Positions 12,848-19,494 of a stretch of 24,806 nucleotides of DNA are shown here, piece by piece. The notes under the pieces were generated by a model, which made no database searches, was not told the DNA's origin, and saw only the letters and a list, made by a program, of their open reading frames with translations. The translations under genes and the position numbers were made by a program. Positions within the stretch are counted from its first letter, which is position 1. Every line of letters begins with the position of its first letter. The DNA comes from a virus (Duplodnaviria; Heunggongvirae; Uroviricota; Caudoviricetes): IMG/VR virus record IMGVR_UViG_2541047691_000012; one strand, given 5' to 3'.

Positions 12848-12874
12848 CGCGCTTCGCTTGTCTGCTGCTTCGCC

Positions 12875-12897
12875 GGGGCATAAAAAATTTATGCCCC
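12875..12897 (+). terminator. Stem-loop downstream of Q (ggggcat...atgcccc); no strong U-tract
   Basis: Perfect inverted repeat ggggcataaa/tttatgcccc starting 28 nt after the Q stop. Confidence 0.3.
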
Positions 12898-13270
12898 GAC
12901 TCTCCAGCTCCTGTATCAGTCAGATAATTTCACGACGCCTTCCAGTTTATCGCCACCATCGACGGTCAGACTCTTACGCAATCCCACCGCGTTGACTGTA
13001 TGTTCTCGCCGCCTCAGTGCGATTTTGACGGCCTTACCTTTCACCCCATCAAATCAAAAGCCCTCACGCCTTTTTCACGCTCAGCGTGAGAAATACAGCC
13101 ATTCTGTTGTGTCGCTGCGACATCGTTCAGGGAATGCTATTTACCCCCTGAAACGCGGGCTGTTCCCCCGTCACCTGCGCGCAGAAAAAACGCGTTTTTT
13201 TGTGCACGCACGGATCCTTGACGGATCCAGCCGCCACGCGGGCCGGAAGGGTAAAAAGTCGTTCAAAAAA

Positions 13271-13297
13271 ATTGTGCAAATTTGTGCACTATTGTGC
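13271..13297. repeat. Three phased TTGTGCA repeats (10 bp period) in the cos-proximal non-coding region
   Basis: attgtgcaaa / tttgtgcact / attgtgcatt at 13271, 13281 and 13291. GTGCAC is palindromic. Candidate protein-binding array. Confidence 0.4.
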
Positions 13298-13306
13298 ATT
13301 GAAATA

Positions 13307-13340
13307 AACGCCCTAGAGGAGGGCGTTTTACTTATCTTTT
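13307..13340 (+). terminator. Rho-independent-type terminator hairpin (aacgccct-agagg-agggcgtt) followed by a T-rich tract
   Basis: 8 bp perfect stem with 5 nt loop, followed by ttacttatctttt. Could also act on the minus strand for parMR transcripts. Confidence 0.45.
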
Positions 13341-13421
13341 ATAGCCTTGCCATGCTTTTTTTCCTTTTTCTTTGTCAATGTGTTGCATTGTGTACCCTTG
13401 TTTATGTTCCCGGATTAAAGT

Positions 13422-13444
13422 CATCAGGGCGGATGCGCCCTGAT
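13422..13444 (-). terminator. Stem-loop immediately downstream of parR (catcagggcg-gat-cgccctgatg)
   Basis: 10 bp perfect inverted repeat 7 nt after the parR stop; weak U-tract. Confidence 0.35.
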
Positions 13445-13450
13445 GTTGTG

Positions 13451-13762
13451 TTATTCGGGAAATAACGCCCGGATATTTCCGGCCATCTGACTGGTTATCT
13501 GTGCGGTTGATACTGGCTGTGATGCGGGGCGTTCTGTCCTGGTTTGTGTCACTGATAACGCTTCATCATCAGCCCATGCAGCCAGTCGGTAAGCCTCTGC
13601 CGGATTCATTTTCAGAAGTGCCAGCCCGGCCAGAAAAGCCACGCGTTGGCCGCTTTTGCGGGCTTCTGGTGTAAGGCTGTCCAGCCAGGCGCATGCTTCT
13701 CCTTCGTTCTTGACGGCGGCGGGCTTCAGATAGAAACTTATCCGTCTGGTTGGAGTCGTCAT
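13451..13762 (-). CDS. parR: ParR-like ribbon-helix-helix centromere-binding adaptor (type II partition)
   Basis: 103 aa from the internal ATG, with an AAGGAG SD 7 nt upstream. MTTPTRRISFYLKP...WLDSLTPEARKSGQRVAFLAGLALLKMNPAEA...NIRALFPE resembles my recollection of plasmid R1 ParR (KRRTIAFKLNPD...LDSIPQGERSRLNRAALTAGLALYRQDP...NILRSLFPKE). Immediately downstream of parM. Confidence 0.7.
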   Translation of the reverse strand: MTTPTRRISFYLKPAAVKNEGEACAWLDSLTPEARKSGQRVAFLAGLALLKMNPAEAYRLAAWADDEALSVTQTRTERPASQPVSTAQITSQMAGNIRALFPE

Positions 13763-13766
13763 TGGT

Positions 13767-14726
13767 TTACTCCTTGTCCATTGCGTACAGCCCATTAACC
13801 AGAGCAAACTGTGGCACCCCGTCCGCGATGAAAGTCGCATTAACTCCGCAGGCTTCGCGGATAGCGGGTGCCACAATCTCCGCCCCTCCACCGACAACCA
13901 TCACCCGCCCGTAACCCGAAAAACCCGCCAGCGCGCGGATCACGCGTTGTTTCAGTGTTTCTTCCTTTTCACGAATAACCGCCATCAGGCTGGCGTAATG
14001 CGCGTCATTGTGGATGTGCTGGCGCAGCCAGGCTTCATCATGGCGATGTTCGATAATGGTATTGGCGATGTGGTGACTGGTGCGCATACCGTTAGTGGCC
14101 ATCACCGACAGTACGGCATCGGCCATCAGAGAAACGCCTACGTGTGGATCGCAAAACACCTGGCTGATACCTGCCAGTTGCCCCTGAACCTTTGCCACAT
14201 CCAGCGTGGTTCCGCCCAAATCCACAATCAGCAGGGATTCAAACGGACTCATGTCAGCCAGTGCTTTAAAGCCAGCCGGAATGGATTCAGGCATAACCCG
14301 CACGTTACGGATAGTGAATGCTTCGCCGTTCTGGTACTCCACCGGGCGCATAACGTTCGCTTTTTTGCGGTTGATGTTGGCCATGTCCGGCTGTGCGTTT
14401 GTGTCGAAATACTCGCTCAGTGGCAGGGTAACAACCACATCCACCTCCTGTGGCGTGATGCCTGATTTGACCAGCGCGTGATGAATGGCAATGACATTCA
14501 CATCGCTGTACTGGTATTGCGTGTCGGTCGTCTGGACAAAGCGATCGCTGACCGGATCAAAACCATAGCGCACGCCATCAAGCATGTAGTTTGCGGGCTG
14601 CGTGCCACCGAACGGCGCAGACCATTCCGACTTGAAACTGTTCGGGCTGATGGCGTTGCGGCGTTCGCCGTTCTCAGTCCATGCCAGCTTGATGTTGGTG
14701 GAGCCGTCGTCGATACAAATTTTCAT
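13767..14726 (-). CDS. parM: ParM/StbA-family actin-like segregation ATPase
   Basis: 319 aa. MKICIDDGSTNIKLAW...ISPNSFKSEW...YQYSDVNVIAIHHAL...KANVMRPVEYQNGEAFTIRNVRVMPESIPAG...LLIVDLGGTTLDVAKV...MVVGGGAE closely parallels my recollection of R1 ParM (MLVFIDDGSTNIKLQW...ISPNSFKREW...WQYSDVNVVAVHHAL...VKVMPESIPAG...LLIIDLGGTTLDIS...VMVIGGGAE). SD AAGGA upstream. Confidence 0.9.
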   Translation of the reverse strand: MKICIDDGSTNIKLAWTENGERRNAISPNSFKSEWSAPFGGTQPANYMLDGVRYGFDPVSDRFVQTTDTQYQYSDVNVIAIHHALVKSGITPQEVDVVVTLPLSEYFDTNAQPDMANINRKKANVMRPVEYQNGEAFTIRNVRVMPESIPAGFKALADMSPFESLLIVDLGGTTLDVAKVQGQLAGISQVFCDPHVGVSLMADAVLSVMATNGMRTSHHIANTIIEHRHDEAWLRQHIHNDAHYASLMAVIREKEETLKQRVIRALAGFSGYGRVMVVGGGAEIVAPAIREACGVNATFIADGVPQFALVNGLYAMDKE

Positions 14727-14754
14727 GTCGATTTTCCTTATGTTGATTAATTAA

Positions 14755-14875
14755 CCGTTTACGGGATTTTTAAATCCCGCTTTCGCCTGTTTTGTGCGCA
14801 CTTCATGTTTTATGGCGCGTTTTTTGCTCATTTACGGGATTTGTGAATCCCGTTTCTGTCTGTTTTTTGTTTCCA
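14755..14875. repeat. Two ~42 bp direct repeats (73 bp period), each carrying a palindrome ACGGGATTT-n-AATCCCG; candidate parC centromere/operator
   Basis: Copy 1 at 14758-14800 (tttacgggatttttaaatcccgctttcgcctgttttgtgcgca); copy 2 at 14831-14875 (tttacgggatttgtgaatcccgtttctgtctgttttttgtttcc). Copy 1 is in the A-parM intergenic space; copy 2 overlaps the last codons of A. Confidence 0.55.
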
Positions 14876-17625
14876 CTGGTCAGGCCACCCCGCAGCAGGT
14901 CTGCTTTGCGGCGGGCGCGTTCAGTGGTTTCACTGATTCTCTGTGCGTGCTCTGCGTCACGGATGGCGCGCAGCATGTCAGAAAGCACGGTAACGGGTGT
15001 TTTCATGGTGTTCTGGTCTTGCTGAAGTGTGGATGCCAGGCGTGCGGCGGCTTCGGGGTCTGATGCCCCTAGCTGTTCCAGATAACTGGCGACCGGGTTA
15101 TGGCGGATCTCCGTGCTGCTTACGCCGTGATTACGGCTCAGGCGCTGCCAGAGCTGCGTGATTCGGTTGTCCGGGCGGGTATCCGGTTTGCGTACAATTT
15201 CAAATCCCTGCGGTGCAATGATGCTGCCGTCAACGTACAGACTGCCGCCCCGTAACAGGTGCTGCATCTGCTGTTCACCGATATGCAGGCCGAGAGATTC
15301 AGCAGACTCCCGCCATTCTTTAGCGAGTAACTCGTGGTTATCAGGCAAAGGCTGTGGCTGTTTGCGGCTCTGTGTCCAGTTCTGCATTTCAGCACTGCTG
15401 TTTTTTGCCTGTTTGTCACGCAGCGAACGCATCAGCGCCCGGCGTTCGTGCCGTTTCAGTGAGCGCATCCATTCATTCACTTCAACGCCGTCAGGGAGCT
15501 GCGGCCACAGTGCTGGCCGTTCTTCCGGCTGTTCTGTCCCGTTGTTGTTCGTTTCCTGTACACGGGGACAGTTATTGCCACGAGTCCAAGGGGCGGCAGG
15601 GCCGCCCTGAAGGTCAAAACCATTTTCGCGGGTGCTGTCCTCCGCTTCCGGTTTACGTCTTACCAGCTTCCAGTTATCCGGATGCGTGCACACACGGGAG
15701 GATTCCCCGATGAATGGCGACCAGATCCCGTAAATCTGTACACTCTGTTCGCCGTAATCGTTAAGCTCATCTGCGAGGTCGTAGGCTGTGCGAATCAGGT
15801 AGTCCTTGCGCGGAACAAGTACGCCACCCTGTTTTTCAATGTAGGTGGCAAAACACCCGGCATCAGCGGCAGCAAGAACCGCATCCATTGCGTCATCCTT
15901 CAGCCGTTGCGGGCCTTCCGGGTTGCGTGCCATCTGGCTGGCAAGGCGGCGGAGTTCACGCCACACCTGACGGGAGGGGATGCCAAAGAACTGGAACTGG
16001 CGGACCCGGTGAAGGCGCGCCCAGCCGATGGCGCGCTCCACGCTCTCGGCCATTGATTTATCTGTTTCGTGGTCAACGCGTGGCTTGCCCGTTTTCGGGT
16101 CGATGCCATCCACGGCGCGGCTGTCCAGGTTCTTTCCGATGTAGGTGGCGATGTAGCTGGTTGGCGTGCCTTTTGAGCCGTCGACGAACTCCGCCTTAAA
16201 GCGTGGGGTAATATCATCACCCAGCTCGTGACGATCTTCCTGAATGGCAATATCGCGGGTGTGGGACACAATGGTGTCGATTTCTTCCGGATGAGCAAAG
16301 ACCATCATATGCCAGTGCACGGTGCCGTCATGGTGAGGCTCCACCGTGCGGATGCCATACCAGCGCAGGCCGTCGCGGTTCAGTTTCTTGCGGACCGCTG
16401 CAAAAAACGTGTTAACCAGGTAATCGCTGGAGTCGCGCATGGTGGCCCCGTTCCATTTGGGATTCGGATGACCGTTCTCTGTTGTGGCGTGGTATTTTGA
16501 CGGGCAGGTGACAGTCAGAAACACCGCTTTGTCGCCACGGGCTTCGGCCAGAAGTTCCAGCCCCTTCATGGTGGCCATCATTTCTGCCTTACGGTGAACC
16601 GGGTTACTTACTCCCGCGTAATACACTGTCTCGAGATCAATCGTGAACCCGTCTTCGTTTTCCAGCATGAAACTTTTCAGGAAATCGCGTGTTTTCTCGC
16701 TCTGTGCGCGAAACTCGCTTAACGCGTCCTGGCTCAGATAGGGTGATGTTTTTCTGGAAACCAGACAGGCGGCGCGGAGTTGTTCTTCTCTCCACTCGCA
16801 ACGTAACAGCCACAGTTTGCGTTTCCACCATTCCGCACAGGTCAGGCGAAGGATTGCGCCCGGCAGCAGCTCCGTGTCCGGTTCGTTCCTCCGGTCTTTA
16901 TCTGTTGTCAGTGCGTCATAATGTGGAGGCATGATGTGCAGGTGTAACGCCATGCGGGCCAGCATCTGATACGCCTTCAGCGTTACATCCATGGTCAGTT
17001 CGCCATCGGTCGCGCCAAAGCCATCGCAGAGTTTTTCGAAGGTGCTGCTGAACATCGCCGCCGTCATGGTGGCCAGCGTCTGTATCTGGTGTTTGTTGAG
17101 CTGCGGCAGGTAAAGCAAATCGTCCAGGCGTTCGCGTCCGGCAAGGGAGCGATAACCCTGTGTCAGCCAGCGGTGATCGGTGCGCTCCAGACGTTCGAAT
17201 ATTTTGCGCAGGGTTCCGCGTGCATAGCGTTCCGCCTGCCAGCTCTTTTTGCCTTTCCGGCGATCGGCTTCCTGTTTTTTGCGCAGGAAGGAGAGGTGGC
17301 GAATAAGCGGATCGCGCAGATAGGACGGCAGCAGGCGCAGCGAGGCCATGGCTTCATCCACCGCGCCGCGTGCCTGTTTTCTGGCGTCTCCTGCCAGTGC
17401 GATGGTTTTGTCCTGTTTTTCCTGTGCGTCCAGGCTTTTATTAATCAGGTTGCCCAGCGGCGTGGCGGAGAACGCCGCATCAGCCATTTTCTGGCGGCGC
17501 TCGTTCTCTGCCCGGTAGGCATCCAGCCAGGAGGAAAGCACGGATTCAGGAGCGGGGATCCCCGTTCCTTCACGCCCTACTGCGTGGCGCGGTTGTTGCC
17601 AGTCCCTGATGTACTCTGTCGTCAT
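14803..17625 (-). CDS. A: Rolling-circle replication initiator endonuclease (P2 gpA-like)
   Basis: 940 aa. HHDGTVHWHMMVF matches the P2 A motif HHDGTPHWHMMLF, and YIATYIGKN matches the YxxxY catalytic tyrosine pair (P2 YVAKYISKN). Longer than P2 A (761 aa). Confidence 0.9.
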   Translation of the reverse strand: MTTEYIRDWQQPRHAVGREGTGIPAPESVLSSWLDAYRAENERRQKMADAAFSATPLGNLINKSLDAQEKQDKTIALAGDARKQARGAVDEAMASLRLLPSYLRDPLIRHLSFLRKKQEADRRKGKKSWQAERYARGTLRKIFERLERTDHRWLTQGYRSLAGRERLDDLLYLPQLNKHQIQTLATMTAAMFSSTFEKLCDGFGATDGELTMDVTLKAYQMLARMALHLHIMPPHYDALTTDKDRRNEPDTELLPGAILRLTCAEWWKRKLWLLRCEWREEQLRAACLVSRKTSPYLSQDALSEFRAQSEKTRDFLKSFMLENEDGFTIDLETVYYAGVSNPVHRKAEMMATMKGLELLAEARGDKAVFLTVTCPSKYHATTENGHPNPKWNGATMRDSSDYLVNTFFAAVRKKLNRDGLRWYGIRTVEPHHDGTVHWHMMVFAHPEEIDTIVSHTRDIAIQEDRHELGDDITPRFKAEFVDGSKGTPTSYIATYIGKNLDSRAVDGIDPKTGKPRVDHETDKSMAESVERAIGWARLHRVRQFQFFGIPSRQVWRELRRLASQMARNPEGPQRLKDDAMDAVLAAADAGCFATYIEKQGGVLVPRKDYLIRTAYDLADELNDYGEQSVQIYGIWSPFIGESSRVCTHPDNWKLVRRKPEAEDSTRENGFDLQGGPAAPWTRGNNCPRVQETNNNGTEQPEERPALWPQLPDGVEVNEWMRSLKRHERRALMRSLRDKQAKNSSAEMQNWTQSRKQPQPLPDNHELLAKEWRESAESLGLHIGEQQMQHLLRGGSLYVDGSIIAPQGFEIVRKPDTRPDNRITQLWQRLSRNHGVSSTEIRHNPVASYLEQLGASDPEAAARLASTLQQDQNTMKTPVTVLSDMLRAIRDAEHAQRISETTERARRKADLLRGGLTSGNKKQTETGFTNPVNEQKTRHKT

Positions 17626-18300: not shown

Positions 18301-18476
18301 GGTGTGGCCTCTTTGGTTGTAAGTTTTGAAAACTCACCATCCAGAGCTGCGAAACTGTGGGTGGCGAGACGTACGGGGTTCGCAGTACCGGCAACCAAAG
18401 AACCCGGCCCGACCGAAGTCGGCCCCGTACGCCCCGCCATAATTCGTGTGCGAAAAAGACGTGGCAATACAGTACG

Positions 18477-18500
18477 CACAAAAAAACCGCTGGCGCGGTT
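18477..18500 (-). terminator. Intrinsic terminator inside the structured region (AACCGC-GCCA-GCGGUU followed by a U-run)
   Basis: Minus-strand reading: aaccgcgccagcggtttttttgtg; short GC stem followed by a U-run of at least 5. Confidence 0.45.
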
Positions 18501-18638
18501 GTGCGCTTTGGTTGTCAGCAGGCTGCGAAACCCGGCACCCGTTTTATGAGGTGCAGCGGAAATGTAACCTGACTGATTGCGGCATGGCAAGCGGTTTTTT
18601 TGTGAGAACGGCATACTAAAAAAAATCCTGATACTGCT

Positions 18639-18669: not shown

Positions 18670-19494
18670 TTACTTCACCGGAACAAACGGAACAGCGGTG
18701 TTGCTGGTCATGTATTGCGGCAGCGTGCCGTTCCATTTGTTGATTGCTTCCAGCTCCATAACGCCGGGATTCTGGCGCAGAGCTTCACCGCGTAAACGAA
18801 TGGCGTCGGCTTCAGCCTGGGCTTTTGTGCGAATGGCATCAGCCTGTCCGGCAGCTTCTGCGCGCAACATGTTGGCTTCTGCTTCGCGTTGCTTGACTTC
18901 CTGTTCGCGTTGCAGGGTTTTCTGGTTTGCCGTGACTTTGGCGTTAATGCTGTCGATAACGGTTGGCGGATATTCCGGTTTACCGACATAAGAGAGGCTC
19001 ATGACCTGAATGCCGATAGGTGTCATTTCTGACTGAATGTCTTTAAGTGCTGAATCCAGCAGTTCAGACTTGCCACCGTCGATAAACTTATCGGTGGTCA
19101 TTTTGCTGGCCAGTCGGTTGAGTGCATCGGCGATCTTCTGGCGCAGGTCAGTGTCGGTAATGTCATCCACGCCTTTGCGGTAGGTCTGAAACACAGTGGT
19201 AACTTTGGATGGATCAACTTTGTAGGCCACGCCGATGTGATAGCCGATGGTTGTGCCGTCACTCATCTGGAAGTTGAACGGCTCATCGTAAGTCTTCATT
19301 TGTTTGAAAGTCGGGAAGATGTAAACCTCTGTATTCCAGCCTGTCCAGTAGCGGCCAACGCCAACTACTTCACCGACGCCTTTATCGTCGCCCAGTTTGT
19401 TGACTTTGATGCCTACATTGCCCGGCTCCACGCGGTCACAGCCAACCAGAAGTGTGGTCATCAGGAGAGGGATGAGTGGTAATAGTTTTTTCAT
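18670..19494 (-). CDS. SPFH/band-7 (prohibitin/stomatin-like) lipoprotein
   Basis: 274 aa. Signal peptide plus lipobox (MKKLLPLIPLLMTTLLVGC). Core and C-terminal Ala/Glu/Arg/Gln-rich coiled-coil region (QREQEVKQREAEANMLRAEAAGQADAIRTKAQAEADAIRLRGEALRQNPGVMELEAINKW) typical of SPFH proteins. ATGA overlap with the upstream small membrane gene. Confidence 0.8.
   Translation of the reverse strand: MKKLLPLIPLLMTTLLVGCDRVEPGNVGIKVNKLGDDKGVGEVVGVGRYWTGWNTEVYIFPTFKQMKTYDEPFNFQMSDGTTIGYHIGVAYKVDPSKVTTVFQTYRKGVDDITDTDLRQKIADALNRLASKMTTDKFIDGGKSELLDSALKDIQSEMTPIGIQVMSLSYVGKPEYPPTVIDSINAKVTANQKTLQREQEVKQREAEANMLRAEAAGQADAIRTKAQAEADAIRLRGEALRQNPGVMELEAINKWNGTLPQYMTSNTAVPFVPVK

Follow-up and report, generated by a model that had tools for sequence, protein, structure and literature searches.

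A ParM/ParR cassette constant in P88-like P2-family prophages of Escherichia coli: a putative segregation module for replicating phage circles

Introduction

What does a plasmid-type segregation system do in a phage that integrates into the chromosome of its host? The question is raised by a 24,806-nucleotide (nt) stretch of DNA from a virus of the Caudoviricetes (IMG/VR record IMGVR_UViG_2541047691_000012), here called the window, in which genes for a ParM/StbA actin-like ATPase and a ParR-like adaptor follow the replication gene A of a P2-like prophage. The original prediction, which a model had made from the letters of the window, was of a type II partition cassette encoding proteins of 319 and 103 amino acids (aa); both open reading frames (ORFs) are present, profile searches placed their products in the ParM and ParR families (Table 1), and the position between gene A and the cos/Q region of an integrase-bearing P2-like prophage was confirmed. 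The cassette is real but already known. RefSeq already names both ParM and ParR, a putative partition system has been described at the gpA-gpQ locus of about a quarter of P2-like phages with episomal maintenance as the proposed function (Rousset et al. 2022, PMC9122126), and P88 has been flagged for partition genes, with the suggestion of episomal and integrative states (Pfeifer et al. 2021, PMC7969092). With these reports, and with the srpMRC and AlpAC systems compared below as precedents, to call the finding unexpected, as had been done from the sequence, was an overstatement.

The present analysis adds that the cassette appears as a constant module rather than cargo, conserved across genera under strong purifying selection, with a candidate two-site centromere whose repeats vary together with ParR, with a guanine-cytosine (GC) content like that of the phage, and with a location that is nearly always chromosomal. 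On balance, it is probable that the cassette works as a functional type II (ParMRC-type) segregation module of the P88-like replication/early block, acting on extrachromosomal circles replicated by the gene A product (gpA).

Phage identity and the two proteins

The window region is 99.9% identical to a chromosomal prophage of E. coli ETEC1701. Besides its integrase, that prophage, which is integrated beside dmsA, possesses a C/Cox switch and the whole of a P2-type morphogenesis block. With phage P88 and further genomes of Xuanwuvirus (Peduoviridae) the identity is 94-98%. Judged by these matches, the window is a P88-like (Xuanwuvirus) prophage of the P2 family. Its gene order, cos-Q...int-C-cox...A-parM-parR-(cargo)-cos, makes the cassette end the counterpart of the A-tin-old-cos end of P2; gene A lies upstream of the cassette, the portal gene Q downstream on the opposite strand, and the integrase gene at the far end of the prophage.

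ParM matched the crystal structures of plasmid R1 ParM (1MWM and others) over residues 2-316 with an E value of 9e-93 and about 50% identity from end to end, and the nucleotide-binding (phosphate and adenosine) motifs are kept in the R1 alignment as IDDGSTNIK, MPESIPAG, DLGGTTLD and GGGAE. No plasmid ParM was more than 52% identical to the phage protein. The original description of both proteins as close homologues of their R1 counterparts thus held moderately for ParM and failed for ParR, which is only 28% identical to R1-type ParR and differs from it in the DNA-facing residues of the strand. Across 72,556 plasmids, tblastn of ParR returned copies of the same phage only, and the R1-type ParR used for comparison was reached via the gene neighbours of plasmid ParMs; phmmer of ParR alone against the PDB gave zero matches.

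Despite this low identity, the assignment of the 103-aa protein to ParR is supported, because a strong Pfam match is joined by a profile match to a known structure and by the architecture of the family. A profile built from phage ParRs alone had pB171 ParR (2JD3, a ribbon-helix-helix (RHH) protein) as its top PDB match with an E value of 0.0026, which became 9e-12 once plasmid ParRs were added. The protein is laid out as a conserved N-terminus (TRRISFYLKP, then helices), a hypervariable linker of 25-30 residues and a conserved C-terminal motif, MAGNIRALFPE (M-x-x-N-I-R-A-L-F-P-E; in general form x-N-I/A-x-x-L-F-P, with the Asn invariant), which can be aligned to the ends of ParRs from R1, pB171 and other sources and by this alignment would be of the ParM-binding type. 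From homology, the N-terminal part would adopt an RHH fold. The AlphaFold monomer, a low-confidence model (predicted local distance difference test score 57), has helices at residues 20-29, 32-52, 54-61 and 86-100, with disorder in the strand region and in the linker; this secondary structure agrees with the ParR layout and is not decisive for the fold.

In parR, two deeply diverged allele classes that are about 52-57% identical to each other are joined to parM genes that are 97-99% identical, and the boundary of recombination falls within parR near 13708 (codon ~18), with the divergent part at 13451-13708.

Conservation of the cassette

The ratio of nonsynonymous to synonymous substitution rates (dN/dS) of ParM is 0.05 among 68 nucleotide alleles, and the full-length 319-aa protein is encoded at all 86 of the 86 loci examined (IMG/VR and others). 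The corresponding values for ParR are 0.13 in the RHH part and 0.49 in the linker. The GC content of parM is 55%, against 53% for the phage backbone and 39-47% for plasmid parM genes. Since ParM is intact, strongly constrained, phage-like in GC content and at most 52% identical to plasmid ParMs, the cassette has long resided in the phage under selection and did not arrive lately from a plasmid.

Among 50,697 phage records, homologues of ParM were found in P88-like phages and in phage D6 only. The D6 ParM/StbA is 48% identical; D6 is a P1-like phage-plasmid, where partition would be expected, whereas the phage studied here integrates. In a large protein database, ParMs that are 54-63% identical occur in Plesiomonas, Hafnia, Serratia and Enterobacter, and every one of these that could be located lies in a P2-like prophage with the order A, zero to two small genes, parM, parR, variable cargo, (ogr), portal; it is in Hafnia and Enterobacter that one or two genes stand between A and parM. 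The comparison with other P2-like genomes at this locus therefore found the cassette constant and, in other genera, in the same order. Two homologues of about 50% identity on large chromosomal contigs adjoin conjugation or plasmid-replication genes, and in a neighbour-joining tree, drawn without support values, the phage ParMs group apart from those of plasmids and integrative and conjugative elements (ICEs). A 226-kb contig labelled as a Firmicute ('Vagococcus sp. WN89Y', NZ_JBQPOM010000071.1) encodes a ParM 98% identical to that of the E. coli phages, and is probably an assembly contamination or a mislabelling.

The cassette was present in 1308 of 5426 complete E. coli genomes (1309 records; ~24%). 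A matching A allele (at least 90% identity) was found in 1386 records, and the cassette accompanies about 94% of them, so that it is, as far as this census can tell, a fixed module and not swappable cargo.

The upstream repeats and the operon

The DNA upstream of parM contains a pair of 39-nt direct repeats, each with an 18-base-pair (bp) palindrome, CGGGATTnnnnnAATCCCG, and with the palindrome centres 73 bp apart; two matches to the palindrome were observed against 0 expected from 100 shuffles. The palindromic iterons that had been read here are thus real as palindromic repeats, but they are two sites only and no iteron array. The distal repeat falls within the 3' end of gene A, in its last codons (the A stop is at 14803). 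Across 54 upstream variants in E. coli, conservation is seen in the arms of the palindromes and variation in their centres, whichever of the two ParR allele classes is present (the N-terminal strand is common to both); covariation between ParR class (T1/T2) and palindrome variants was not seen within E. coli and appears only between genera. Phages of Plesiomonas (ParR TRRISFYL) and Hafnia (ParR TRRVSFYL) have two palindromes of the GGGAT..ATCCC type 72-74 bp apart, and phages of Serratia and Enterobacter (ParR NRKISFYL) carry an inverted pair of another kind, GGGAAC..ATAGAAAAAT. That the repeats change together with the ParR N-terminus between genera supports, without proving, their role as candidate ParR-binding sites.

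Gene A, parM and parR are on the same strand, with a gap of 76 nt between A and parM, and parR begins 4 nt past the parM stop. With a simple consensus scan, nothing resembling a sigma-70 promoter was detected upstream of parM; the coding strand between A and parM showed no terminator-like site, and two GC-rich hairpins downstream of parR likely mark the end of the operon. Because neither promoter nor terminator was detected before parM and strong hairpins follow parR, parMR would be the last part of the early (replication) operon, expressed during phage replication.

Proposed function

According to the above results, it is reasonable to suggest the following mechanism. Dimers of ParR would attach to the two palindromes upstream of parM, and the C-terminal helix of ParR would capture the ends of ParM filaments, whose ATP-driven polymerisation could push apart the DNA molecules that bear parC. 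The substrate would be the circular phage genome arising from rolling-circle replication by gpA, either after infection or after excision and induction; P2-type replication gives monomeric circles. Circles pushed apart in this way might disperse the replicating genomes in the cell, and where a cell divides before integration or lysis, each daughter could receive one copy. Family matches, conserved motifs, low dN/dS, intactness at all loci examined, synteny, covariation of the repeats, phage-like GC content, position in the operon and the precedents all argue for such a segregation module. Broader, and rather less likely, is the idea of a core cytomotive system in an integrating P2-family clade found in about a quarter of E. 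coli genomes, which with a minimal two-palindrome centromere either disperses lytic circles or runs a fallback low-copy plasmid state.

Several points weigh against a segregation module acting on replicating circles. A lytic cycle lasts tens of minutes and leaves little obvious need for segregation, and the absence of a promoter of its own rests on a simple consensus scan. The two sites compare with the 10 iterons of R1 parC, and a ParR ring or solenoid might not form on them. The palindromes could instead act as RNA hairpins, because a common arm variant from C to T retains G-U pairing. Shortened ParM clusters of 188-261 aa with several hundred members each occur in the protein database, from which it follows that some lineages may have lost the full ParM.

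The ParMRC (StbAB) system of R1/NR1 resembles the phage cassette in its order of cis site, parM and parR, in a ParM that shares about half of its residues and keeps the nucleotide-binding motifs, and in a ParR of the same family (PF10784) with the same arrangement of RHH domain, linker and C-terminal motif. Unlike R1/NR1, the replicon that hosts the cassette here is an integrating P2-like phage with rolling-circle replication. R1 ParR has 117 aa, 14 more than the phage protein, from which it differs in the strand residues noted above; the R1 cis site consists of ten 11-bp direct iterons that flank a promoter, in contrast to the two spaced palindromes of the phage, where a promoter of its own was not detected; and R1 parM has a GC content of 39%, the lowest of the plasmid range, against that of the phage gene.

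Closer in lifestyle is srpMRC, which stabilises the excised, rolling-circle-replicating SXT/R391 ICEs, and whose experimentally verified centromere, srpC, contains just four 13-bp repeats (Carraro et al. 2015, PMC4489591). Both systems are actin-type partition cassettes of normally integrated elements that replicate by rolling circle once excised, and the centromere of srpMRC, like the candidate sites of the phage, is small, with a few direct and inverted repeats. However, SrpR has no sequence similarity to ParR, whereas the phage ParR is a clear member of PF10784; the ICE is not a phage; and the function of srpMRC is experimental, whereas the phage cassette is known from sequence. In prophage CGP3 of Corynebacterium glutamicum, the AlpAC genes are switched on early, and efficient replication of the circular phage DNA depends on them (Donovan et al. 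2015, PMC4446434). This AlpAC/alpS system likewise pairs, in an integrated prophage, an actin-like protein with a DNA-binding adaptor whose site lies upstream of the operon, but it belongs to a distant actin-like family in a different host phylum.

Alternative explanations

The alternative that fares best among those considered is a facultative plasmid prophage, in which integrated and plasmid states would coexist and the cassette would maintain a long-term low-copy circular episome, for example where attB is missing. Rousset et al. (2022, PMC9122126) and Pfeifer et al. (2021, PMC7969092) have proposed it, and two sequences speak for it: one phage-sized circular record in PLSDB (NZ_CP148288.1, 34,461 bp), which holds the whole phage with its integrase, and the Plesiomonas relative, which lies on a 32-kb contig of about phage size. 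Nonetheless, 1454 of the 1456 cassette copies in the complete E. coli genomes are chromosomal, the near-identical copy of ETEC1701 lies beside dmsA, and the other PLSDB records are large replicons with an integrated copy or a linear fragment ridden with insertion sequences, which is not the autonomous replicon in lysogens that characterises phage-plasmids. Moreover, a repressed P2-type prophage should not express A and would then not replicate, and the lone circular assembly may reflect spontaneous induction. Because nearly all copies are chromosomal and a single phage-sized circular record was found, stable maintenance as a plasmid is at best rare, and the episomal lifestyle to which the original prediction had pointed is weakly supported; as an explanation of the cassette we regard it as unlikely. 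A match to a 26.7-kb Shigella 'plasmid' was rejected as an episome, being a linear, IS1-ridden fragment.

The constant position behind gene A raises the thought that ParM and ParR might stimulate nicking or replication by gpA, itself an HUH protein, or that ParR might mainly be an operator protein for transcription of the early operon. TraI is an HUH-type nickase, and R1 ParM and ParR are known to bind this relaxase and raise its DNA relaxation activity; the cassette always comes after gene A, and one ParR-type candidate site lies inside the 3' end of A. Against such an accessory or regulatory role, the whole of ParM, filament and ATPase features included, is very strongly constrained, and the genes intervening in Hafnia and Enterobacter separate A from parM. 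We consider this role improbable.

A little less probable again is a lysogen-expressed moron comparable to old and tin, which would act in trans, either through partition incompatibility or by keeping out plasmids or related phages, or else on the chromosome of the host. The cassette does sit where P2 has its exclusion genes and beside a hotspot that in relatives holds defence-like genes (AbiL-like, RmrA-like, PDC-M04A; Rousset et al. 2022, PMC9122126). The interval from parR to the portal gene measures 603 bp here (12848-13450), the shortest and empty state, and up to 2387 bp in relatives, where it carries pairs of an AbiL-like ATPase and a Toprim-like protein, an RmrA-like helix-turn-helix/peptidase protein with a PIN-like partner, PDC-M04A-like genes or ClpX-zinc-finger proteins, and in the Serratia and Enterobacter relatives HicAB and a KAP NTPase. 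The variable hotspot of the old/tin type is, in this comparison, the interval between parR and cos/portal and not the ParMR cassette, which is constant and not swapped; in so far as the old/tin position originally assigned to the cassette implies swappable cargo, it was not borne out. PADLOC models matched neither ParM nor ParR, the composition of the cassette is that of the phage backbone, the consensus scan detected no promoter of its own, and the DNA-reading strand of ParR differs from that of R1 ParR, which makes cross-reaction with R1-type parC unlikely.

That the cassette is a functionless, decaying relic of plasmid-phage recombination, for which the shortened ParM clusters might be cited, is very improbable in view of the dN/dS of ParM, the intact loci, the synteny across five genera at 54-63% identity and a GC content that fits the phage backbone and not plasmid parM genes.

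Neighbouring features of the window

The coordinates of the cassette and of its surroundings are collected in Table 1.

Table 1. Features of the cassette and of adjoining DNA in the window (positions count from the first letter of the window)
Feature	Position	Strand	Remarks
Approximate cos region	13235-13300		ends of the linear Xuanwuvirus P88_4B11 record map to ~13251
Two GC-rich hairpins downstream of parR	13422-13445 and 13306-13328 (span 13306-13445)	- (scan lists +)	each stem a perfect palindrome
18-codon ORF, apparent scar, MQHIDKEKGKKAWQGYKR	13332-13388	-	between the two hairpins; fuses the N-terminus of ClpX-zinc-finger cargo to the C-terminus of 135-aa cargo
parR, adaptor, 103 aa	13451-13762	-	Pfam Plasmid_stab_B (PF10784, StbB/ParR family), 1.6e-24; ATG at 13762, end at 13451
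parM, actin-like ATPase, 319 aa	13767-14726	-	Pfam StbA_N (PF06406), 1.8e-82, and ParM C-terminal domain (PF21523), 1.3e-68
Proximal repeat, candidate parC/operator	14758-14796	-	palindrome CGGGATTTTTAAATCCCG at 14762-14779, 36 nt upstream of the parM ATG
Distal repeat, candidate parC	14831-14869	-	palindrome CGGGATTTGTGAATCCCG at 14835-14852
Gene A, rolling-circle replication endonuclease, 940 aa	14803-17625	-	Pfam Phage_GPA, 2.1e-130

The Phage_GPA domain match covers residues 179-503 of gpA only and leaves a long C-terminal part outside; the protein is longer here than in relatives from other genera, where it has 785-907 aa. A dN/dS of 0.73 for the gpA C-terminus was discarded, as the sequences had been compared without an indel alignment.

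Between parR and the portal gene, the short ORF that separates the two hairpins looks like the deletion scar of two cargo genes known from relatives. The cohesive ends are unannotated, and the ends of the linear record would place cos at about 13251. Three GCACAA repeats at 13268-13297, with a spacing of 10-11 bp, adjoin this site and could be binding sites for terminase or of the cosB type. Sequences taken for the P2 cos and for the P2 ori nick site had no counterpart in the window even with 3 mismatches allowed.

Close to a pseudogene of the ash family, in the early region upstream of gene A, Rfam matches above the gathering score were obtained for the C4 antisense RNA at 18357-18444 (- strand; 87 bits) and for isrK, an Hfq-binding small RNA, at 18480-18554 (- strand; 66 bits). 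The region resembles an antisense immunity or anti-repressor module of the P1/P7 type, here within a P2-like phage. At the ETEC1701 position that corresponds to 18670-19494 (- strand), RefSeq has an SPFH-domain protein, an unusual early-operon cargo for a P2-like phage.

Implications

A ParMRC-type cassette is chromosomally integrated in about 24% of complete E. coli genomes, carried by a phage that integrates. In the Enterobacterales, ParM and ParR should not be counted as a plasmid marker by annotation pipelines or by classifiers of plasmids and phage-plasmids. If the cassette does act on replicating circles, CGP3 AlpAC and SXT srpMRC would gain an equivalent that is Gram-negative and genetically tractable, and the view that 'integrative' elements require plasmid-like maintenance functions while they are extrachromosomal would apply more widely.

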